A stretch of DNA of 64,000 nt, from IMG/VR virus record IMGVR_UViG_3300009376_000002. One strand, given 5' to 3'. This document shows positions 25,782 through 40,694 of this stretch, one piece after another. The number at the start of each line of letters is the position of its first letter. The stretch's first letter is position 1. The position numbers and the translations under genes were made by a program. A model generated the notes under the pieces. That model searched no databases. It saw only the letters and a program-made list of their open reading frames with translations, and was not told where the DNA came from. The stretch comes from an uncultured virus (IMG/VR IMGVR_UViG_3300009376_000002). Lineage: Duplodnaviria; Heunggongvirae; Uroviricota; Caudoviricetes.

Positions 25782-26345
25782 ATGTCAGCACTTTATGAAG
25801 CATACGTAAGCTTTCCGCGCTATGACGCACGAAGCGGGCTTGGTTATGGTGCTGCAGATTCTGCTGTAAAACCAGGCCTATCAGTCGGAAAACCGATGTC
25901 AATGCCTGGGCTCTATCCCTACAAAGAGCCTCCCACAGACGTCGATGACGACGGAGAAGACCTTCCCGCCAAGGACAAAAAGAAGGTAATTAATAAAGTG
26001 GGTGGCATTACTCGTATTAACGATCCTTTTTCTAGTAACTGGGTAGATAGAGGCGCTTTTGTTAACTGGGCAACTCGCCTTGATTTATACGAAGCAAGAA
26101 ACGCAGTAGACTTAGAGGACGTTGTAAGAGGACTCGAGGGAAGTAGTTCAACAGGTGGCATGAGTCAATTTGTTGCTATGGGAAATGGGGCGGGAATTTA
26201 TAAGACCCGGTATGGAAAAACAATAGGAATGGATATAGGCGGCAGGCCACAATCATATTCTGCGACAAAGACAACAAAGAAGATACCTCCATCTTTATCA
26301 GACTTTATCAAAGACTATCTAAGGGATGAAGATGAAGAGATCTAA
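25782..26345 (+). CDS. Hypothetical protein
   Basis: ORF fills the gap in a co-oriented cluster; no motif recognised. Confidence 0.55.
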   Translation: MSALYEAYVSFPRYDARSGLGYGAADSAVKPGLSVGKPMSMPGLYPYKEPPTDVDDDGEDLPAKDKKKVINKVGGITRINDPFSSNWVDRGAFVNWATRLDLYEARNAVDLEDVVRGLEGSSSTGGMSQFVAMGNGAGIYKTRYGKTIGMDIGGRPQSYSATKTTKKIPPSLSDFIKDYLRDEDEEI

Positions 26346-26559
26346 GAAGTTTCCCGCAGAATATGGTGTCGTTGTAAGGTCTAGACCAAGAGAAAGTACC
26401 GACAAATTAATTGCCCGTTTTAAGAGGATGTATAAGCGCTCTGGGTTACAAACTGAAGTAAGAGAAACGTATATGCAGCGCTTTATGTCAAGATCAGAGA
26501 AAAAGAGAATGAAAAAAAATAGAGCAAAGAGAAGGGCTCTGAAAAACAGCAAAGGGTGA
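26326..26559 (+). CDS. rpsU: Phage-encoded ribosomal protein bS21-like
   Basis: 77 aa, highly basic. VVVRSRPRESTDKLIARFKR...SGLQTEVRE...SEKKRMKKNRAKRR matches the bS21 pattern; lies directly before scaffold and capsid genes. Confidence 0.78.
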   Translation: MKMKRSKKFPAEYGVVVRSRPRESTDKLIARFKRMYKRSGLQTEVRETYMQRFMSRSEKKRMKKNRAKRRALKNSKG

Positions 26560-28059: not shown

Positions 28060-29976
28060 ATGTCTAAGTTTTCACTCGAAACGCTAGCCGAAGGAATTCG
28101 GTCGCGTCACATGGGTGAGGAGAACTCCCGCTTGGTCGAAAAGTGGTCTCGCACCGGTCTGCTCCGCGGCCTGGAATCAACAAAGCGCGAAAACATGGCG
28201 CGCCTTCTTGAGAACCAGACTGCAGAGCTTCTTCGTGAGCAAAGCACAATCGGCACAGGCGGCGGAGCTGGCACCGCTTCTGGTGACCTTCGCGGTTTCT
28301 CCAATATCGCCTTTCCAATCGTTCGTCGTGTATTCGGCGGACTTGTCGCAAATGAGCTGGTATCCATCCAGCCCATGAGCTTGCCTTCTGGCCTGCTCTT
28401 TTATCTTGACTACACCTACGGTTCTAACGTTGGTGGTGACGCATCTCTCACAACGGGCGATGCAGGAACCTACGACAAAGAAACGTATCAGCGTGGTCAA
28501 TCCATCTATAACAACCCAACTGGCAAGGGCGTACGCTCTGGTTCATTGGCAACAGGCGGTCAGTATGACTTGGTCGGTGCAACTTACTCTAAGGTGCACA
28601 GCTCCTCGATCTCACCAACCGTTATGTTTGCTGGTGCACACGGTGCAAACTCATCCTTGACATCCGGTTCGTTGTGCCATGCCACAGGTTCAGATGCTAA
28701 GTTGCTCCAATTCGATCCTCAAGTTCTTGACTTGATCGAAAACGATCCCGGTCTTGACGGTGATGGACGCTTCTGCATCGTCATTGTGGACGTCACTGAT
28801 GCACCCTTTAACAATGTCGATCTTACGAACGCCAAGGACATTTCCTTGTTCTCAGCAGTTCCTGAGGTTCGTACAGGTGTTAAAGAGCTTGGTGCTAGCT
28901 TCCAGGGCGGCAAAGGTATTCTTAACCTCCGTCGCTTGAACCAGCTTGGTACGTTTGCGAACAACAAGTTTACCGCAGATCCCATGGTAACAAGAAGCAC
29001 ATCAAATGCTGCTCTCTTGACAGTTATGTCTGGTAACTTCAGCGGTAAAATTGATGCCGGTGATGCTGCTACAGCATACCTCTCAGCATCATATGCCATT
29101 GGCCCAACATTGAATGTAGAAGACGGTTCTGGTTCTACCCTTACCATTCCTTCATTCGAATCTGATTTCGGTACTACACCTTCACCAGTGATCCCTGAAA
29201 TCGACATTAAGGTTGAGTCCATCGCAGTTACAGCTGCTACACGCAAGCTGAGAGCTCGTTGGTCGCCAGAATTGGCACAGGACCTTAACGCATACCACAG
29301 CCTTGACGCTGAGGTTGAGTTGACACAGATCCTTTCTGAGCAAGTTGCTCTTGAAATCGATCGTGAAATCCTGAATGACCTGCTTAGCGAAGCCCAGGGC
29401 GCAAACCTTTACTGGTCACGTGCTCCAGGCAAGTTCCTGAACAAGGAAACAGGCGCCGAAGTTAAGTTGAATGACAGCTTATCTGCAGGTCCTCGTTTCA
29501 CAGGCACAGTTCGCGAATGGTACGAGACCCTGGTCGAGTCCGTTATCGATGTTGCTAACACCATCCACCGCAAGACACTCCGTGGTTCCGCGAACTTCGT
29601 GGTCACCTCTCCGGATGTCTGCACAATGTTCGAAGCTTCAGTGATGTATCGCCCAAGCCTCAGCATTGACAGCGAAGGTCAGGTTTCCTCCCCATTCAGC
29701 CTCGGTGCTGAAAAGGTTGGTACCTTGAGCAACCGCTTTACGGTCTACAAGGACCCATACTTCCCTCGCAACAAGATTCTTGTTGGTTATAAGGGTGGTA
29801 GCTACCTTGAGACAGGATACGTTTATGCTCCGTATGTTCCGCTGATCGTCACACCAACGATCTTCGCGCCAGAAGACTTCACCCCTCGTAAGGGCGTGAT
29901 GACTCGCTACGGCAAGAAGATGGTTCGCGCTGACTTCTACGGTACCGTTACGGTTGCTGACTTGAACGTCATCTAA
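28060..29976 (+). CDS. Major capsid protein (T4 gp23-like)
   Basis: FPIVRRVF, VSIQPMSLPSGLLFYLD, TRKLRARWSPELAQDLNAYH, LEIDREI, YAPYVPL, FTPRKGVMTRYG. Confidence 0.96.
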   Translation: MSKFSLETLAEGIRSRHMGEENSRLVEKWSRTGLLRGLESTKRENMARLLENQTAELLREQSTIGTGGGAGTASGDLRGFSNIAFPIVRRVFGGLVANELVSIQPMSLPSGLLFYLDYTYGSNVGGDASLTTGDAGTYDKETYQRGQSIYNNPTGKGVRSGSLATGGQYDLVGATYSKVHSSSISPTVMFAGAHGANSSLTSGSLCHATGSDAKLLQFDPQVLDLIENDPGLDGDGRFCIVIVDVTDAPFNNVDLTNAKDISLFSAVPEVRTGVKELGASFQGGKGILNLRRLNQLGTFANNKFTADPMVTRSTSNAALLTVMSGNFSGKIDAGDAATAYLSASYAIGPTLNVEDGSGSTLTIPSFESDFGTTPSPVIPEIDIKVESIAVTAATRKLRARWSPELAQDLNAYHSLDAEVELTQILSEQVALEIDREILNDLLSEAQGANLYWSRAPGKFLNKETGAEVKLNDSLSAGPRFTGTVREWYETLVESVIDVANTIHRKTLRGSANFVVTSPDVCTMFEASVMYRPSLSIDSEGQVSSPFSLGAEKVGTLSNRFTVYKDPYFPRNKILVGYKGGSYLETGYVYAPYVPLIVTPTIFAPEDFTPRKGVMTRYGKKMVRADFYGTVTVADLNVI

Positions 29977-29999: not shown

Positions 30000-30002
30000 A
30001 TG

Positions 30003-30034
30003 AAGGGGAGTCCGAAAGGGCTCCCCTTTTTTTT
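30003..30034 (+). terminator. Rho-independent terminator after major capsid gene
   Basis: GGGGAGTCC-GAAA-GGGCTCCCC followed by a T8 tract. Confidence 0.9.
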
Positions 30035-30068
30035 GTCTCTTTATTTCCTTAAGATTCCAGCACGGGAA

Positions 30069-30167
30069 CATATCTAATAGTAGGCCCGTCACATTGCATA
30101 AGGGTGAACTCGCCACCGTGCCGGAATCATGCGAACAAAATAAAGGAGAAAATTATGCCAAAGGTTA
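30069..30167 (+). repeat. 99-bp perfect direct repeat, copy 1 (promoter motif + structured leader + RBS + first codons)
   Basis: Identical to 30612-30710: catatctaatagtaggcccgtcacattgcataagggtgaactcgccaccgtgccggaatcatgcgaacaaaataaaggagaaaattatgccaaaggtta. Confidence 0.95.
30083..30136 (+). ncRNA. Candidate pseudoknotted 5'-leader RNA, copy 1
   Basis: Pairings by eye: CCGUCAC/GUGCCGG (6 of 7 bp), UUGCAU/AUGCGA crossing it, inner hairpin GGUG-AACU-CGCC. Confidence 0.45.
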
Positions 30168-30523
30168 TTATTTCTGATGATAAAGGTCTGAACCAAACCG
30201 CAGGTTCGGGGCTGGAGTCTAGGAGCGCTCACTATAGTAGCTACGGGACTACTACAGCTTTAGCAACAGGTTCTTTCCCGCTTCTTCCTGCGGGAATAGT
30301 AAACACTGTTGACAGCACTAACAACGCACATGGTGTTAGATTGCCCAACGCTGCAGGAGCAGGTCAGATCATGATCGTTAGAAATGTAGACAGTGCTCAG
30401 GACTGCGTTATTAGAAATCAAGCTGAGACAGGTGCCATCCTTGTCACGCTCGGCGAAGGTAAGACTGCTCTTTTCGTAAGTACAGCTTCTGGAAATAACT
30501 GGTCTGGAAGTCAGCTCGACTAA
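30155..30523 (+). CDS. Small putative capsid decoration/fibre protein, paralog A (122 aa)
   Basis: AAGGAG RBS then ATG 30155 (MPKVIISDDKGLNQTAGSG); follows the capsid gene; beta-rich, small-residue composition. Confidence 0.65.
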   Translation: MPKVIISDDKGLNQTAGSGLESRSAHYSSYGTTTALATGSFPLLPAGIVNTVDSTNNAHGVRLPNAAGAGQIMIVRNVDSAQDCVIRNQAETGAILVTLGEGKTALFVSTASGNNWSGSQLD

Positions 30524-30551
30524 AAGAAAACTCAAAAGTGTTATTGCAATC

Positions 30552-30577
30552 AAGGTGCTCAATCGAGCACCTTTTTT
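30552..30577 (+). terminator. Rho-independent terminator
   Basis: AAGGTGCTC-AATC-GAGCACCTT then T tract. Confidence 0.85.
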
Positions 30578-30611
30578 GTTTGAATATTTTCTTCTTTTTT
30601 AAGATCTTCCC

Positions 30612-30710
30612 CATATCTAATAGTAGGCCCGTCACATTGCATAAGGGTGAACTCGCCACCGTGCCGGAATCATGCGAACAAAATAAAGGAGAAAATTATG
30701 CCAAAGGTTA
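30612..30710 (+). repeat. 99-bp perfect direct repeat, copy 2
   Basis: Identical to 30069-30167, offset 543 bp. Confidence 0.95.
30626..30679 (+). ncRNA. Candidate pseudoknotted 5'-leader RNA, copy 2
   Basis: Same sequence and pairings as 30083-30136. Confidence 0.45.
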
Positions 30711-31144
30711 CGTATTCAGATTCGAAGGGGCTCGTCCAGACGTCAGGTGCTGGGATGGCTCTAACCGGCTTCATGCATGGTCAAAAATGCCCACAGAAGT
30801 CGGTAACAAGCACAGACACGCTTACTGTTGAAGACAGTGGCAAGTTAATTACCCTGACGGGATCAGCATTTACTTTGTCGCTGCCCAGTGTCTCAGCGGC
30901 AAAAGGATGCCACTATACGATCGTTGCTGGTCAAGCTGCGAATTATGTCCTTTCTGAGCTCGTCGGAACTGACGACAACGTTTTGACGATGGTAAGCGTA
31001 AATGCGTCTGCTACTGAAAGAGATCACGCTTTTACCACAGCTACTCTGAGTGGCGGAGCTATCGGAGACAGGTTTTACGCCGTCTCTAACGGAACTTGGT
31101 GGGTCATCACGGCCTTCGCCAATGCTGCCGTAGCCGCCGCATAA
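30698..31144 (+). CDS. Small putative capsid decoration/fibre protein, paralog B (148 aa)
   Basis: AAGGAG RBS then ATG 30698 (MPKVTYSDSKGLVQTSGAG); TLTVEDSGKLI...TLSLP...SNGTWWVI fibre/decoration-like pattern. Confidence 0.65.
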   Translation: MPKVTYSDSKGLVQTSGAGMALTGFMHGQKCPQKSVTSTDTLTVEDSGKLITLTGSAFTLSLPSVSAAKGCHYTIVAGQAANYVLSELVGTDDNVLTMVSVNASATERDHAFTTATLSGGAIGDRFYAVSNGTWWVITAFANAAVAAA

Positions 31145-31189
31145 TATAGTGGTTGACAGCTAAGACTTAGTACTGTCACACTAGAAGAG

Positions 31190-31222
31190 AAAGGCGCCCC
31201 CAAGTGGGGCGCCTTTTTTTTT
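31190..31222 (+). terminator. Rho-independent terminator
   Basis: AAAGGCGCCCC-CAAGT-GGGGCGCCTTT plus T tract; preceded by another imperfect hairpin at 31147-31183. Confidence 0.9.
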
Positions 31223-31292: not shown

Positions 31293-32465
31293 GTGGCAAC
31301 ATTCGCTAATACAACTAACCCAACACCATTCGGTGCTTTTGATAGTGACTCAGAGTTTCAATCTGAAGCAGACAAGATGGTTACTTTTGTTAAGAGGAAG
31401 CTCGGAGATGACATTCTGTCTGTCGAGTTGACCAAAAAGCAGATCTGGGCTTGTTTCGAAGAATCTTTCTTCCAGTACGGGCAGATTGTTAATGAATACC
31501 AAGCTAGGTCACAATTATCGACTTTTTTAGGGACTTCAACTGGAAGCATGTCGGGATCTGAGCAAAAGTTCCCGCATGAGACACTGCAGTTCTTAGAGAG
31601 GATGGCAGAGCCCTATGCCTTTGAAGCAGGTGTAGGAGGCTCGTACGACTCAGTCTCAGGATCGATTCAGCTAATCAAAGGCCAGCAAGATTATGACATT
31701 TACGATAAGCTACAAGATGATTCTGGAAATTTGTTGTATTCTTCGTCTCTCAATACCTACAGTTCCAAAATGAAGATTCAAGAAGTTTTCCACTTCAATC
31801 CCCAAGCAGCATATCGATTCTTCGATACAACCTCAGCTATCAATTACCTTAATAATGAATTTTCTTTTGAGTCTTTCACCCCGGAAACTATCTTTTATGT
31901 TCTCCCTGTTTTTGAAGATATCTTGAGGGCAGGGCAAATGGATGTTTCCCACCGTGTACGAAGATCTAATTATTCTTTTAAGGTGATCGGAACCAAGATA
32001 AGAATCTACCCAACGCCTTCAGGAGATCAGACTAATCGAAAACTATGGATAAGAGTGGCATTTGCACCTGACCCCCTTAACCCCTCTTACGGGGATGATA
32101 CAATATACGGTGTATCCAATTTATCCAATGTTCCCTTTGGAGATCTTACTTATTCTAACGTAAATTCAATAGGTCGTCAATGGGTAAGGCAGTATGCACT
32201 TTCTCTTTCTACAGAGCTTCTGGGCCTGGTAAGATCTAAGTTCAAATCTTTACCAATACCAAATGCAGATATCCAGCTTGATGGAGATAATCTGATATCA
32301 CAGGGAAGAGAAGATAAGAAAGAGCTGGTTACAAAGCTCCGTGAGATGCTTGATTCTCTGACGTATGATAAGATTATTGAGATGAACGCTATCAAGGCCG
32401 AGAATATACAGAAACAACTTAGAACCATTCCGATACCTAACGGTAATGCAATTACAATGGGTTAG
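31293..32465 (+). CDS. Neck/head-tail adaptor protein (T4 gp13-like)
   Basis: FVKRKLG...VELTKKQI N-terminus; WVRQYAL...LGLVRSKF..LPIP...LDG C-terminus; position after capsid; GTG start with GGAG. Confidence 0.8.
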   Translation: MATFANTTNPTPFGAFDSDSEFQSEADKMVTFVKRKLGDDILSVELTKKQIWACFEESFFQYGQIVNEYQARSQLSTFLGTSTGSMSGSEQKFPHETLQFLERMAEPYAFEAGVGGSYDSVSGSIQLIKGQQDYDIYDKLQDDSGNLLYSSSLNTYSSKMKIQEVFHFNPQAAYRFFDTTSAINYLNNEFSFESFTPETIFYVLPVFEDILRAGQMDVSHRVRRSNYSFKVIGTKIRIYPTPSGDQTNRKLWIRVAFAPDPLNPSYGDDTIYGVSNLSNVPFGDLTYSNVNSIGRQWVRQYALSLSTELLGLVRSKFKSLPIPNADIQLDGDNLISQGREDKKELVTKLREMLDSLTYDKIIEMNAIKAENIQKQLRTIPIPNGNAITMG

Positions 32466-34421: not shown

Positions 34422-37400
34422 ATGGCTGAACAGACTTTTAGATCTCCCGGATTCTTTGAGCAAGAGGTTGACTTAACACAGAGAGTTCAATCACCAACGG
34501 GAACTCCGGCAGGAGTAGTTGGTACTGCTCAGAGAGGTCCGGCATTTGTTCCTGTGACCGTCGGGTCTTTTGTAGATTTCCAGACTAAGTTTGGTAATCT
34601 TGATTCCAAAAGATTCGGCCCGTACGCAGTTAACGAATTTCTCAAGAATAGAGATGCTGTTACGTACGTGCGCGTTCTCGGCGCCGGCGCAAATGATGAG
34701 ACAGAAGAAATTAATACTACCCGTGTGCAAGGAAGCGTGAAAAATGCAGGCTTCAAGATCACACCAATTACAACAGATAAAAGGCTCGGTCTTTCTACGA
34801 CACATATCCTTGCTGCTAAACACCACATTTCTGCATCAGAACAATATGGATTCCCAATTTTCACACATAACGATTCATATAATTCATCTGCAGATGCCAA
34901 TCTGGTAAGAGCAGTTATCTTCACTACAACAGACTCCAGAGTTGGTGTGTTGAGTGCATCTTTCGATGGCACCGACATGAGCGCTGCTTTTTGTAAGTCA
35001 GGCGGAGATGCTCTTGCAACGATCGGAACGTCAGGAGACTTAAAAGACAAGTTCAAGTTGTTTATCTCCTCATCTGATACTTCATTTGCAACAACCGACG
35101 GTCAACCGGGCATGAGGATTCTTACTGCTTCTCTTGATCCGAGGAACAAGAATTACATTAGAAATATTCTAAATACAGATCCTGCTCAATTCTCAACTCA
35201 AAAGCATCTTCTTTATGCTGCATTTGATGTTGAATACTGCCTGGCATCAATTTCTTCTGATGCTAATTCGGTAGGAATGCTTTCAGGATCAGCCGTGGTC
35301 TCTAATGACAATGCGGCAGGTGAAAGCTTCTTGACGGCGTTTGGTAGATACGACACCAGATACAACACGCCAAAAACAACAGATTTTATCTCCCAGCCTT
35401 TCGGCACAACAGAGTATCCTCTCTTTAGTTTTGAAACTATTGACGACGGTGCCTTTGCTGCAGGCAAATATAAGATTTCTATAGCAAACATTCGCGGGTC
35501 CCTTGACGAGAATAATCCGTACGGAACCTTCACAGTCCAGGTCCGAGCTTACAGTGACAATGACAAGTCGAAGGAAGTCTTGGAAGAATACCCACAATGC
35601 GATCTTAATCCTAATTCCGAGAAGTTTATAGGGAGAATGATCGGGGATAAAAAAGCATTCTTTAACTTTGATGCTGAGCTTGAATCAGAGAGAAAAGTAA
35701 CTGTATCGGGCAAATACCCTAATATGTCAAACGTCGTTCGAGTCGTACTCAGCGACGATGTTGTCAACGGAAATGTCCCAGCAGAAGCCTTACCTTTTGG
35801 TTTCAAGGGAATCCCAGCCCTTAAGACGAATGATAAGCTTGATGACTTTACCTCGCAGGCTGAAGTCGGATATCGCCTTGGAGGAAGAATTGGCAACGCT
35901 GCAACAGCCCTTCTCCAGGCATCGATTCTGCCGCCTGTCCCTTACACGTTTAAGTCGACAAACGGAGCAGTTAAAGACGGATCCGTTTTCTTCGTCGGCC
36001 AACAGGGAACCCAAGAAACAGTAGACAATAGAATCTACTGGGGTGCTAAAACAACTATGCTTGCAGCAGACAAGAGCGTCCAAAGTTCAGGTATTACGAA
36101 CTCTGCCCTTAAGTCAAATGCAGGAACTTCTGTGAACCTAGGTTTAAAAGATCAAGCCAAGTTCCTCGGCATTTCGAAAATGGATGTGTTGCTGACAGGA
36201 TCCCAGATCATTCCTGCCAAGGCAGGCGATCGCAAGACATTCAATAACAATAAGTTTACCCTCGCCCGCGTCGCACTTTCCCGACAGGCAGGACTTTCCG
36301 ATACAGGGGCTTACACAGATACTGAGATCACAGGAACTATCGGTTCCAACATGCTTGAAGCAGCATACATTCGTGATGCCTATGTTGATCCCACCACTTA
36401 CACAGTTTCTGACGGAACAAGGCTTAACAGAATTACATTCGCAACCCTGCTAAACCAGACGTCTTCTGTAACGTTTAATAAGTTCACGGATTACATGAAG
36501 TTTACTAACGTTTTCCACGGCGGATTCGATGGCCTTAACATCTTAGATAAGAACGCTACCAGAATGAACGATAAGTCGATTTCCCTTGATACGGGTGGTG
36601 GCGCTAATTCATCATTTACGTCTCCTGGCATGGCATCGAATATGGCAGGAGCAGGCAAAGATAACAATGCCGTTCGATCTTATAGAGCTGCCATCGACGT
36701 AATGACAGATAGGTTTGCTTCTAATATTAATATTCTGTCTATTCCAGGCGTGAGAGAAACATTTGTAACAGATCATGCAATAGACAAGGTCAAGGATTTT
36801 GGGCAAGCCCTCTACTTGATGGATATACCTGAATATGATAGCGACGGAAACAGGCTGTACGATGATTCAACAAATCGCCCAAGCGTTTCCAAGACCATCG
36901 CGAATTTCGAGGCACGTACTATTGATAGCAATACAACGGCAACGTATTTTCCAGGTGTGATTATCACGGATGATAGCAACGGATCAAGCGTTAATGTTCC
37001 TCCCTCTATAGCAGCCTTAGCTGCTCTAGGATTTAATGATCGGGTAAGCTTCCCGTGGTTCGCACCTGCAGGATTCAATCGAGGATCACTTGATTTTGTC
37101 CAGAATGTGGATGTTCGACTCTCTGCGGGAGACAGGGATTCGCTTTATGATGCACGAATTAATCCTATTGCTACTTTCCCACAGCAAGGATTCGTGATCT
37201 TTGGGCAAAAAACCCTGCAGATGGCAAAATCTGCGCTGGATAGAGTTAACGTAAGAAGAATGCTTCTTGAGGTTAAACGAATAGTTTCGCAAGTGGCAAA
37301 TGGATTTGTTTTTGAACAGAACACTCCTGCACTAAGAGCTAAATTTATTGCTGATGTATCACCTTTGCTTGCAGTAGTTCAGGCACAGAGTGGGATTGAG

Positions 37401-37553
37401 CAATTCAAAGTTGTAATGGATGACTCTAACAACACCGCTGACGATATTGAGTCTAATAGGCTGAATGGACGCATTGTGATTGTCCCGACAAGAAGTATTG
37501 AGTTTATATCAATTGACTTCGTCATAACAAATGCCGGCGTAAGCTTTGAGTAG
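34422..37553 (+). CDS. Tail sheath protein 1 (gp18-like)
   Basis: FRSPGFFEQEVD, GTAQRGPAFVP, WFAPAGFNRG, LYDARINPI, GQKT, LDRVNVRRML, PTRSIEFI. Confidence 0.95.
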   Translation: MAEQTFRSPGFFEQEVDLTQRVQSPTGTPAGVVGTAQRGPAFVPVTVGSFVDFQTKFGNLDSKRFGPYAVNEFLKNRDAVTYVRVLGAGANDETEEINTTRVQGSVKNAGFKITPITTDKRLGLSTTHILAAKHHISASEQYGFPIFTHNDSYNSSADANLVRAVIFTTTDSRVGVLSASFDGTDMSAAFCKSGGDALATIGTSGDLKDKFKLFISSSDTSFATTDGQPGMRILTASLDPRNKNYIRNILNTDPAQFSTQKHLLYAAFDVEYCLASISSDANSVGMLSGSAVVSNDNAAGESFLTAFGRYDTRYNTPKTTDFISQPFGTTEYPLFSFETIDDGAFAAGKYKISIANIRGSLDENNPYGTFTVQVRAYSDNDKSKEVLEEYPQCDLNPNSEKFIGRMIGDKKAFFNFDAELESERKVTVSGKYPNMSNVVRVVLSDDVVNGNVPAEALPFGFKGIPALKTNDKLDDFTSQAEVGYRLGGRIGNAATALLQASILPPVPYTFKSTNGAVKDGSVFFVGQQGTQETVDNRIYWGAKTTMLAADKSVQSSGITNSALKSNAGTSVNLGLKDQAKFLGISKMDVLLTGSQIIPAKAGDRKTFNNNKFTLARVALSRQAGLSDTGAYTDTEITGTIGSNMLEAAYIRDAYVDPTTYTVSDGTRLNRITFATLLNQTSSVTFNKFTDYMKFTNVFHGGFDGLNILDKNATRMNDKSISLDTGGGANSSFTSPGMASNMAGAGKDNNAVRSYRAAIDVMTDRFASNINILSIPGVRETFVTDHAIDKVKDFGQALYLMDIPEYDSDGNRLYDDSTNRPSVSKTIANFEARTIDSNTTATYFPGVIITDDSNGSSVNVPPSIAALAALGFNDRVSFPWFAPAGFNRGSLDFVQNVDVRLSAGDRDSLYDARINPIATFPQQGFVIFGQKTLQMAKSALDRVNVRRMLLEVKRIVSQVANGFVFEQNTPALRAKFIADVSPLLAVVQAQSGIEQFKVVMDDSNNTADDIESNRLNGRIVIVPTRSIEFISIDFVITNAGVSFE

Positions 37554-37589: not shown

Positions 37590-40500
37590 ATGGCCGAACG
37601 TACTTTTAAAAGCCCAGGCGTAAGAGCTTTTGAGATCGATAGGTCTGGGCCTACCCCAACCGGTCCAACGGGCGTTCCAGCAGGCGTAATAGGCACTGCT
37701 AAAGAAGGCCCAGCTTTCGTACCGATCACAGTTGCCGACTTCTCCGAATTTGAATCTAAGTTTGGATTTGTAGGCGGCGATGAGTTCGGACCTATCGCTG
37801 CACAAGAATGGCTCAGAAATGCTGGGTCCCTTTCTTATGTGCGAGTACTTGGAGCCGGCAACGCGAAGAAAAGGTCTTCAAGCGATGGAACGGTTACGAA
37901 CGCAGGATTTATCGTAGGCCAGAGATTACCTTTGGATTCTGGGCTTTTAGGAGACAATCCAGAAGCAAACACCGGCGGAGAAGGAGAAGGAAGAACTTAC
38001 TTCCTCGGATGCTACATGTCGCAATCCGCAGGATCAACAATCTTCTCCGATGCCGGAATAGGATCTGCTCAAAATCTTGGTACCACAGTCGCAGCTTCAG
38101 TCCTTCGTGGTGTGCTAATGGCAGCATCAGGTGTCAACCTAAGGCTTTCATGCTCAAATGGTACGATGGGCCAGGGAAACACACCAACATCAACAATGAC
38201 ATCATCAATGTCAGGCCAGGGCAACCCATCCGCTGGTTTCTTAACGGGTACAATTAACTTTTCTAACGGGTCCCCTAAGTTTACCATGCTTTTGCCTGGC
38301 CACAAAGGAAAAGATTATCCTCGAGTTCTTACAGCATCTTTAAATCCTGATGACAAAGATTACTTTGCAAACATCTTCAATAAAGATCCCCAACAAGTTC
38401 AGAAGCACGGCTACGTTCTTTACTCGCATTATGATGTATATCCAGAATATGCCGTCGTGACAGGTTCGGGAATCTTGGCAACAGGATCAAGCGTTGTGAA
38501 CGGCGCAGTGTCAGGCTTATACTCAGGAAGCTCTGATGCTGTTTTCCTCCTTACAGGAACTCAAGGGAGAAACAACGGATCTGCCGCGGCGCCAAACTTC
38601 GAAGGATTCCGTGAGAGATTCCAGGCCGCTAAGACGCCATTCATTATCTCACAAGAATTTGGTGGAACCGCCAAGGATCTCTTCCGAGTGCATCTCTTAA
38701 GCGATGGTGTCATGAAGGGCAAATCTTCAGACTCAGTGGGTGCGAACACTAAATACAAGGTTTCTATTGAGAACGTAGGTAAATCTTCAGATGAACTTAA
38801 CAAGTTCGGTACGTTCGATCTTGTCTTAAGAGACTTTTACGACAACGATGAGAATACATTCGTTTATGAGGCCTTCCGCGGCCTTAACCTTGATCCTGCA
38901 TCGACCAATTACATCGGACGTCGAATTGGCGATACCGACATGTTCTACGATTTTGATCAGGCACAGGGATCCCAAAAGCTTGTGATTGACGGAAAGTATG
39001 CTAACGTTTCTTCGCGCATAAGAGTTGAAATAGCATCTGATGTTGACAACGGTGAAATCGATCCTGAATCTCTGCCCCTAGGGTTTAGAGGTCTAGATCA
39101 CCTTGTAACCTCTGGATCAAATGTTCTTAGCGCACCTCCAAACGCAAACTTCAGCCTACAGAGAGACCCAAGCATGACGCTCAAATCAGTTGTGCAACCT
39201 CCTGTACCGCTTAGAGAGAACATCGCGATGGGTCTCGCGCCTAAGAAGGTGCCTAATAAGTCGCTTTACTGGGGCGTCCAATTCACGAAGAAAACCCTCT
39301 TAAATGAGCCCAACAAGAGCAGCGTTATTGATCCAAGCATAGTCAGCTTTACGAAATTCTTCACTGATCACGCCGTATCTGACTTCAATGTATTGACAGG
39401 TTCTAATGCAGGTCAGGCTGATGAAAGCGGCGCAATTCTAGATTGTGATAGGTTTAATAACAACAAGTTTACTTTAGAAAACCTGCAGGTCGGTACGGGA
39501 TCTGATGGTCTTGCATTAACCACGGACGCAGCTCTTGTTAACAGCTGGTCATACGCACGCGATGGAAACATCACTACGAATGCTGATGCCAAGACCCGAA
39601 GGTTTGAGGTAAACGATACAACAAGCCCGGCGGTTCGAAGGCTCTCTAAGTTTACGATGCCATTCCAGGGTGGATTTGATGGATTTAACATCTTTAATAA
39701 AAACACCGCCTTGATGAACAACAACGCCGTTAAAGGTGAGATGGATGATTCTAACAGAGGTGGAATCAACGGCCCGACAGTTGCAGCCTTTAAGAAGGCT
39801 CTGGAAGTCATGGGTGAGAAGGCTGATGTTGAGATACAGCTCTTGGCTGTTCCTGGCATTAGAGAGGCTACCGTCACAAATGATGCTATAACGACTGTAG
39901 AGGACAGATTTGATGCACTCTACATCATGGATATCGGCGAGCGTGATAACGTAAACGCAGTGGTTACTTCCTCTGTGCAAAATGTCAATGTTTCAAATAC
40001 CGTAGCATCATTCAACGACAGAGCCTTGGATTCATCCTTTGCTGCAGCATATTTCCCAGATGTTAATATGAACATCCAGGTGAAGACACTGAATCAATCA
40101 ACGAAGACTGTAGTAGCAAATTCTGCAACAGTTCGGGTTCCGCCGTCAGTTGCAGTTTTAGGTGCTTTCTCGTTCAACGATGCAGTGGCGTTCCCGTGGT
40201 TCGCTCCTGCTGGATTTGCCCGAGGATCTATGAACGCTCTATCTACTGCAGTAAGCCTAAATCAAACCAATATGGACGATTTGTACGATAAGGATATCAA
40301 CCCTATCGTTTCGTTCCCTAATAGTTCTGGCCCGGTAGTTTACGGACAGAAAACTCTGCAATCTGCAGCGTCTGCTCTTGACAGAGTCAACGTAAGAAGG
40401 CTCTTGATCGACGTAAGGCGCTCAGTTAAGCAAGTTGCACAGCAACTTATCTTCGAGCCTAATAGAGAATCAACCCTTCAAAGATTCACTGCTTTGGTAA

Positions 40501-40694
40501 CTCCAATCTTGAAGAGAGTTCAGGAAAACCAAGGTGTTGATCGATTTAGAGTTGTTATTGATTCTAGCACAACTACGCAGGCAGACATTGAAAACAATAC
40601 AGTTCGAGGGAAGATCTTCTTGCAGCCTACACGAACAGCAGAATTCATCTCGCTTGATTTCGTGGTAACAAATTCAGGAGTTGATGGACTTTAA
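37590..40694 (+). CDS. Tail sheath protein 2 (gp18-like paralog)
   Basis: FKSPGVRAFEID, GTAKEGPAFVP, WFAPAGFARG, INPI, GQKT, LDRVNVRRLL, PTRTAEFI. Confidence 0.95.
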   Translation: MAERTFKSPGVRAFEIDRSGPTPTGPTGVPAGVIGTAKEGPAFVPITVADFSEFESKFGFVGGDEFGPIAAQEWLRNAGSLSYVRVLGAGNAKKRSSSDGTVTNAGFIVGQRLPLDSGLLGDNPEANTGGEGEGRTYFLGCYMSQSAGSTIFSDAGIGSAQNLGTTVAASVLRGVLMAASGVNLRLSCSNGTMGQGNTPTSTMTSSMSGQGNPSAGFLTGTINFSNGSPKFTMLLPGHKGKDYPRVLTASLNPDDKDYFANIFNKDPQQVQKHGYVLYSHYDVYPEYAVVTGSGILATGSSVVNGAVSGLYSGSSDAVFLLTGTQGRNNGSAAAPNFEGFRERFQAAKTPFIISQEFGGTAKDLFRVHLLSDGVMKGKSSDSVGANTKYKVSIENVGKSSDELNKFGTFDLVLRDFYDNDENTFVYEAFRGLNLDPASTNYIGRRIGDTDMFYDFDQAQGSQKLVIDGKYANVSSRIRVEIASDVDNGEIDPESLPLGFRGLDHLVTSGSNVLSAPPNANFSLQRDPSMTLKSVVQPPVPLRENIAMGLAPKKVPNKSLYWGVQFTKKTLLNEPNKSSVIDPSIVSFTKFFTDHAVSDFNVLTGSNAGQADESGAILDCDRFNNNKFTLENLQVGTGSDGLALTTDAALVNSWSYARDGNITTNADAKTRRFEVNDTTSPAVRRLSKFTMPFQGGFDGFNIFNKNTALMNNNAVKGEMDDSNRGGINGPTVAAFKKALEVMGEKADVEIQLLAVPGIREATVTNDAITTVEDRFDALYIMDIGERDNVNAVVTSSVQNVNVSNTVASFNDRALDSSFAAAYFPDVNMNIQVKTLNQSTKTVVANSATVRVPPSVAVLGAFSFNDAVAFPWFAPAGFARGSMNALSTAVSLNQTNMDDLYDKDINPIVSFPNSSGPVVYGQKTLQSAASALDRVNVRRLLIDVRRSVKQVAQQLIFEPNRESTLQRFTALVTPILKRVQENQGVDRFRVVIDSSTTTQADIENNTVRGKIFLQPTRTAEFISLDFVVTNSGVDGL

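Follow-up and report, generated by a model that had tools for sequence, protein, structure and literature searches.

A conserved double-pseudoknot leader RNA with a helix over the start codon precedes spike-like virion genes in large uncultured phages

The DNA analysed here, a stretch of 64,000 nucleotides from an uncultured tailed phage (hereafter the window), is part of a virus record of 235,681 bases that is an estimated 70% complete and for which the closest capsid protein of a cultured phage is 45% identical. Our focus is an interval flanked by a gp23-type major capsid gene upstream (28060..29976; Pfam PF07068, E 6.5e-75) and a head-tail adaptor gene downstream (31293..32465; phrog_211, E 2.6e-10), the two anchors of a gene cassette; these and all other window features given below are on the + strand. 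Three terminator-like hairpins split the interval into two self-contained promoter-leader-gene-terminator units: an intrinsic-terminator-like hairpin with a U run 3′ of the capsid gene (30002..30035; consensus match only), one separating the two units (30552..30577; consensus match) and one at the end of unit 2 (31184..31222; consensus match). As the initial annotation had reported, positions 30069-30167 and 30612-30710 are identical over 99 bp, with no identity in the left flank and a mismatch at the very next base to the right, and the stretch occurs exactly twice in the record. The duplication starts precisely at the first base (-13) of a candidate late promoter box of T4 type; this promoter, an RNA of ~77 nt and the opening codons of a gene for a spike-like virion protein make up each copy. 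The two genes had been described as diverging after codon 4; in fact, similarity runs on at 87% over 147 nt, the proteins are homologous, and so are their families (hhalign 96%, E 4e-9).

Several further features were noted along the way. A ribosomal protein bS21-like gene (window 26326-26559; Pfam E 1.1e-5, below the cut-off) sits shortly before the genes for scaffold and capsid, and a tandem pair of tail-sheath-like genes, each of ~1040 aa and alike at the N-terminus, occupies window 34422-37553 and 37590-40694, the first of which was covered by the scan. A 65-base promoter-plus-gene-start repeat, 88% identical, is present at G000:C1:179411-179475 and 180098-180162, and further near-duplicate repeats at G000:C1:82497-89391. 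A phage tmRNA with the tag ANDDFDIYAIAA (G000:C1:34087-34408) adjoins a histone H1-like Hc1 gene, and genes for glycosyltransferases, sugar epimerases and methyltransferases form a large cluster (G000:C1:38000-62000) that possibly acts in virion or DNA glycosylation.

Gene 1 (30155..30523) encodes 122 aa with an MPKV-type N-terminal arm, and gene 2 (30698..31144) its 148-aa paralog. Both products model as a low-confidence N-terminal hairpin followed by a beta-sandwich (pLDDT 82.8 and 87.7, respectively). The best PDB match of gene 1 is a tailspike (E 9e-5), alongside a weak hit to PF25692 below the cut-off (E 0.01); the fold of gene 2 is closest to the Pa223 capsid spike (9ny6, E 5.2e-6, TM 0.55), residues 2-41 of which are the capsid anchor according to the accessible part of 10.1101/2025.06.11.659172. 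From these models, we infer that gene 1 codes for a spike- or tailspike-knob-like virion protein and that both products would be surface spikes.

The T4 late box TATAAATA occupies positions -13 to -6 (accessible part of PMC1524935), which, applied to the putative late promoters of copy 1 (30069..30076) and copy 2 (30612..30619, identical), places +1 at 30082 and 30625. Transcription of the first unit would thus start at A30082, with a conserved AGGC (30082..30085) at the 5′ end. In the homologs described below, a TATAAATA-like box is found at a fixed distance from AGGC, the predicted 5′ ends following from this spacing, and T/A is conserved at -11, -10, -7 and -6 in 79/81, 78/81, 80/81 and 80/82 members, respectively, among the matches listed. 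This fixed position is what supports the earlier reading of ATATCTA as a late promoter, since the motif alone is not enriched (8 found in the window, 6.8 expected). The reported distance of 85 nt from motif to ATG holds for both copies, and the range given for the other copies of the motif changes from 12-50 nt to 26-58 nt (six window genes). A search for sigma region 2 gave no match in the 70%-complete record. Four metatranscriptomes (shares 0.05-0.10) consist of contigs only and so are uninformative on the start; one contig of depth 2.8 covers 30005-30267, beginning upstream of the predicted start, and may be DNA or read-through.

Homologs were collected upstream of MPKV genes, where a gene-start pattern (44 loci) exposed a conserved upstream block. 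A second pattern, built on the core of the RNA and leaving 12 of its 15 core pairs free, returned at least 119 stretches with at least 86 distinct cores from viral contigs; 82 of the 86 form 11-12 of the 12 free pairs among the matches listed, and the other four, with 3-7 pairs, were dropped. The same pattern gave 73 hits in cellular genome contigs, a single one of which forms 11 pairs. This member stands upstream of an MPKV gene on L259, a contig of 3.6 kb binned with a Flavobacteriales MAG; L259 is probably a phage contig in the bin and not host evidence. Three further patterns freed other positions, and the union of the core-pattern set with two of these sets holds at least 96 distinct cores; L491 (no promoter, no model hit) and three edge loci from the independent pattern set were removed. 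With a covariance model, 28 of 33 records gave strong hits, 29 in total; the five records missed were entries that had come in through chance or unrelated matches. The capsid gene is 62-100% identical to that of the window in 26 of the 29 leader-bearing records, 100% being the window's own record, and a capsid or adaptor gene lies within 1.5 kb in 12 of the 29 leader loci. By comparison, an exact 17-base search found 19 loci, namely four near-identical phages and 15 chance matches in another gene. The covariation alignment comprises the window and 44 other members. Members of the family are related to one another, with an effective number of about 24, so counts overstate independence.

Downstream of the leader, an MPKV..KGL-type N-terminal arm is present on 71 of 82 genes among the matches listed; in the remaining 11 the first gene encodes a charged low-complexity protein lacking the arm, and an MPKV gene follows in the five such loci seen whole. 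In seven loci of this subgroup (L025, L038, L043, L049, L052, L537 and L542), genes of the MPKV type come further along in the same orientation. Spike paralogs whose N-terminus differs do not carry this leader (no covariance-model hit). In L072, L073, L078, L563 and L565, a different conserved late leader stands ahead of MG(S/T)(K/R)R(V/I)GLAR genes, a candidate for a second RNA motif.

No Rfam 15 family matches the leader: the window has zero matches at gathering score and none on the leader at E<=10, and eight homologous loci have none on the leader at E<=1. Literature searches turned up no account of this RNA. The accessible parts of PMC10085705, PMC4615214 and 10.64898/2026.09.22.753630 do not describe it, and it may be present unnamed among the 8,495 viral candidate RNAs of PMC10690425, likewise accessible in part. 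The family is thus absent from the RNA catalogues searched. Combined with the covariation set out below, this supports the view of the initial annotation that a cis-regulatory pseudoknot RNA outside the catalogues lies here.

Comparison of the members shows a nested double pseudoknot of four covarying helices, termed P1, P2, P3 and the loop pseudoknot. P1 (30086..30124; 30086-92 with 30118-24, 7 bp), already drawn by eye in the initial annotation, contains one U·C mismatch in both window copies and is paired in 98.7% of alignment cells, with two-sided changes in six of its seven pairs. P3 (30103..30117; GGUG 30103-06 with CACC 30114-17, 4 bp) is paired in 99.4% of cells and closes a 7-nt loop, L3 (30107-13). 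The loop pseudoknot (30110..30134) joins UCGC at 30110-13 to GCGA at 30131-34, a 4-bp helix whose 3′ strand is reached from P1 through a conserved 6-nt linker (30125-30); it is 98.9% paired, with two-sided changes in three of four pairs and the fourth going from C-G to A-U in L547. Taken together, these three helices are 99.0% paired with two-sided changes in 12 of 15 pairs, and their covariation of 0.646 compares with 0.241 in shuffles (0/500 reach it) and at most 0.14 in slid registers. The three unvarying core pairs had been fixed by the search pattern, and two of them vary in members found otherwise; the first pair of P1 is U-A in L045 and L036 and C-G in 16 of the 18 members where it was free. 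Copy 2 (30625..30701), being identical to copy 1, holds every element at an offset of 543 bases.

The stems upstream of these genes thus proved conserved and covarying, and we regard the conserved RNA structure as practically certain. Nested folding of the window sequence was worse than that of shuffles (z +2.27, with a program that cannot form pseudoknots), so the single sequence alone lends no support. Other parts of the original drawing had to be given up. The crossing stem UUGCAU/AUGCGA is 65.4% paired and its own pairing is no better than that of permuted partners (4476/5000), which also removes it as a conserved alternative "open" fold; the hairpin GGUG-AACU-CGCC is 71.7% paired, the real inner helix being GGUG/CACC. 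Nor does the RNA stop ~8 nt short of the ribosome-binding site; it spans that site and pairs with the start codon.

This last pairing is P2, in which the 5′ strand GCAUAA (30096..30101) meets UUAUGC (30153..30158), a segment that includes the AUG of gene 1. Among the matches listed, 80 of 82 members form at least five Watson-Crick pairs with their own initiation region, the mean being 5.89 pairs vs 4.73 after permutation (0/10,000). In the independent pattern set, a P2 complement lies downstream in 18/18 members vs 1/34 chance hits. The helix occurs as GCAUAA/UUAUGC, CAUAAC/GUUAUG, AUAAUC/GAUUAU, GUGAUC/GAUCAC and CCAUAA/UUAUGG, and it tracks codon 2, the last variant standing ahead of genes that begin with MV in L087 and L100. 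When column pairs are ranked by corrected mutual information, each of the top 15 is a predicted pair; the P2 partner in that alignment had been picked by best pairing, and the permutation and independent-pattern tests are the fair ones. By median duplex energy, P2 is weak (-4.1 kcal/mol vs -9.5 for P1).

The base of the fold is invariant: A1 and G3 of the 5′ AGGC and A1, A2, C4 and U6 of the linker are the same in 40/40 members from patterns that leave them free (L491 dropped), and A1, G3, linker C4 and U6 are also kept in divergent members. The 5′ AGGC may pair with the linker (A1-U6, G3-C4), which would extend P1 to the first base with the loop helix directly after it, a pairing that covariation cannot confirm because the bases do not vary.

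How closely is the structure tied to translation initiation? The Shine-Dalgarno (SD) sequence AAGGAG (30143..30148) lies in the loop between the pseudoknot and P2. Among the matches listed, 72 of 82 members have the SD wholly within this pre-P2 loop, and in the other 10 it overlaps P2. The loop varies from 9 to 40 nt, yet the 3′ strand of P2 begins 3-11 nt after the first SD base in all 82 of these members. P2 covers part of the AUG in 72/82 and all of it in 47 of the matches listed, its start ranging from -11 to -1 relative to the AUG. Where loops are 20 nt or longer, an anti-SD hairpin of 3-4 bp (CUC/GAG, UCCU/AGGA or UCAC/GUGA) is found in 37 of 39 members among the matches listed vs 21% of shuffled inserts; it is found in 0/43 short loops of the same set, the window included, and the SD of the window is unpaired, as is that of the 33 short-loop members that have it wholly in the loop. 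Helices begin to hinder 30S binding at about -6 kcal/mol; P2 is weak and near this range. Taken as a whole, these features suit tunable repression better than stabilisation alone. A longer protein from the upstream in-frame GTG (30104) was considered and rejected, as leaders fall in all three frames and 67 of 82 among the matches listed have an in-frame stop. A tRNA-mimic (IRES-like) reading of P2 was also set aside: its register shifts relative to the AUG, so there is no fixed tRNA-codon mimic.

The perfect identity of the two copies calls for its own explanation. L059 is 93% identical to the window up to 30210, has a different 161-aa gene and is again 97% identical from 31256; L023 carries a relative of gene 1 only, and L071 a relative of gene 2 only. 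Three units that differ by compensatory changes sit on one contig. L022, which is 95.5% identical overall, departs from the window in copy 1 at 30070, 30080 and 30151, with letters common to L059, and it is at these positions that copy 1 of the window matches its own copy 2. Most likely, the identity stems from a recent exchange between the leaders of a hypervariable cassette, by recombination or gene conversion, and conversion of copy 1 by copy 2 would be the simplest account, the direction being suggested by a comparison of three loci. The suggestion of a homology anchor for gene swapping is therefore supported as the reason for the identical copies; it does not account for the conserved structure.

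Among known RNAs, the HDV-like ribozymes are the obvious comparison. The initial annotation had seen an HDV-like order of elements; the order holds in another register, and the register then proposed, as well as the catalytic features, are absent, the GG after P1 on which an HDV register would draw not being conserved. The HDV catalytic cytosine, C75, sits in J4/2, 3-4 nt before the 3′ strand of P2; in the leader, a C is found 3-5 nt before that strand in 1 of 82 members among the matches listed, and the positions are A/G. The HDV G1 at the base of P1, adjoining the cleavage site, is also absent, P1 opening with C-G or U-A. Going by the accessible parts of PMC13635239 and PMC10879173, HDV-like ribozymes, including minimal P4-less and phage theta forms, share with the leader the strand order P1, P2, P3 and loop helix, the nested double pseudoknot, a 7-bp P1, an optional hairpin at the P4 position and occurrence in tailed phages. 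In contrast, the loop helix of the leader has 4 bp, draws on the 3′ side of L3 and follows a 6-nt linker, where HDV has a 2-bp P1.1 coaxial with P1 (PMC13635239, accessible part), although the putative AGGC-linker pairing could still let P1 and the loop helix stack. Unlike those ribozymes as the accessible text presents them, it holds the SD in its J4/2-like loop (9-40 nt), builds P2 from the start-codon region and begins at a promoter, not beside a tRNA. We do not file it as an HDV-like ribozyme because the P2-adjacent cytosine, the 2-bp P1.1 and G1 are all missing.

Other parallels concern function. In the accessible part of PMC3014915, the gene 32 leader of T4, T2 and RB69 is likewise a phage 5′ leader knot controlling translation of the adjacent gene, and P3 with the loop helix makes a pseudoknot ending 8 nt before the SD, matching the gene 32-type upstream position. 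The gene 32 knot, however, consists of two stems placed ahead of the initiation region, and the protein under its control binds ssDNA, whereas the leader has four helices, one on the start codon, and serves a virion protein that is not known to bind RNA. At T4 genes e, soc, 49 and I-TevI (same source), the SD and/or AUG is held in a helix that lowers 30S binding, as proposed here; the gene e helix arises when early transcripts read through, and transcription from the late promoter avoids it, unlike the leader, whose whole structure lies inside the late transcript. The MS2 maturation-protein leader (PMC4615214, accessible part) also closes over the ribosome-binding site of a virion gene, and translation may be confined to the time before it folds; MS2 is an RNA phage whose leader is a cloverleaf with a paired SD, and no likeness in sequence or fold was found. 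The xrRNAs of Tombusviridae and Luteoviridae, whose 5′ end is encircled by a ring of about 15-16 nt and which block 5′-3′ exoribonucleases, stall the nuclease inside a longer RNA, and the accessible part of PMC8374639 does not describe start-codon pairing. By analogy, the leader would act in the manner of the T4 initiation-region inhibitors or of the gene 32 operator, possibly combined with 5′ protection. We consider it a new, uncatalogued family within a known sort of phage leader control.

The account we favour, and think fairly probable, is that the leader is a cis-acting gate on translation initiation at the 5′ end of a late phage mRNA. With transcription starting at A30082, the G+C-rich core (P1, P3 and the loop pseudoknot) would fold first, tuck the 5′ end away and present the P2 strand; once the start codon is transcribed, P2 would close over the AUG, competing with binding of 30S and initiator tRNA. 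The leader probably limits the output of the spike-like protein. P2 may be too weak for repression unaided, and because it is marginal, a bound factor could tip it. A protein-modulated gate seems somewhat likelier than damping of a purely intrinsic or kinetic kind; the likeliest factor would be a protein able to recognise the invariant bases of the core, for instance unassembled spike or another late phage protein, and such control would match spike output to capsid supply. As for candidate partners, a RegA search gave no match, with control queries in the same search equally silent, and no known RNA-binding regulator appeared among the 150 of 182 small ORFs scanned. Phage bS21 was rejected as a required partner: it is present in 7 of the 29 leader-bearing records, and at E<=0.01 nine of 29 match, two of these weakly and inside 411-aa frames, with none in the one complete record.

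A more specific picture, which we rate as unlikely, is that a non-cleaving relative or mimic of the HDV fold holds its own 5′-triphosphate at the position of the ribozyme's cleavage site, ligand binding then closing P2. If true, this would be a phage-specific switch on an HDV-like scaffold, answering to a small molecule or a capsid-assembly protein, and would link 5′ protection of the mRNA to translation of virion spikes.

Among explanations that compete with the gate, there is a small chance that the leader is mainly a 5′-end protector, in which the knot hides the 5′ triphosphate from RppH, RNase E or RNase J, P2 does no more than complete the fold, and the result is a long-lived mRNA for an abundant virion protein. 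The RNA does begin at the predicted +1, the four bases that could seal its end are complementary, invariant and kept in divergent members, RppH and RNase E require single-stranded 5′ ends (PMC3997798, accessible part), and HDV-like folds have been proposed to shield 5′ ends without cleavage (PMC11331408, accessible part). Yet a protector would have no need to place P2 in the ribosome-binding site, where it lies in all 82 members among the matches listed, nor to add an anti-SD helix in long variants, and a plain hairpin would suffice.

Less probable again is a small-molecule or ion riboswitch whose invariant core binds a metabolite and locks P2, turning translation off. A compact pseudoknot, invariant unpaired bases, a marginal switch helix that masks the ribosome-binding site and variable additions resembling expression platforms would all suit it. 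However, the genes controlled are spike-like structural proteins with no link to a metabolite, the 73 cellular-contig hits contain just one convincing member, itself ahead of an MPKV gene, no conserved alternative pairing for the P2 strand was found in the one register tested, and no Rfam riboswitch matches.

It is improbable that the leader is instead a translation enhancer or standby scaffold, displaying the SD in a loop to recruit 30S, which then melts P2. The unpaired SD of the window and the 33 short-loop members listed would fit, as would the initiation-improving structures at T4 genes 25 and 38 (PMC3014915, accessible part); against it, P2 lies on part of the AUG in 72 of the 82 members listed, its register shifts from -11 to -1 instead of keeping to a tRNA-codon mimic, and long variants pair the SD. 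Highly improbable is a self-cleaving ribozyme, whether a divergent HDV-like one or a new class, that trims the 5′ end. The HDV strand order, 7-bp P1 and invariant core bases invite the idea, and the near-absence of the cytosine before P2 (1 of 82 among the matches listed), a P1 that opens with C-G or U-A, a loop helix that comes 6 nt after P1, the shift in L547 of the C following that helix and the 4 nt upstream of P1, if the predicted start is right, speak against it. Finally, a recent duplication or recombination anchor without RNA function, for which the identical copies, their common P1 mismatch and the swapping of the cassette among close relatives could be cited, is hardly credible, being contradicted by compensatory changes in all four helices across phages with capsids 62-86% identical and between paralogous copies in one contig (L087), and it survives just as the reason for the perfect identity.

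The leader is a well-supported addition to the RNA families of large uncultured phages with T4-like contigs, an abundant group many members of which conserve it, and presents an HDV-like double pseudoknot that apparently serves gene control instead of cleavage. At less than 80 nt, the element comes with dozens of natural compensatory variants and makes clear predictions. A shared leader of this kind would let a phage swap its surface proteins yet keep their control.
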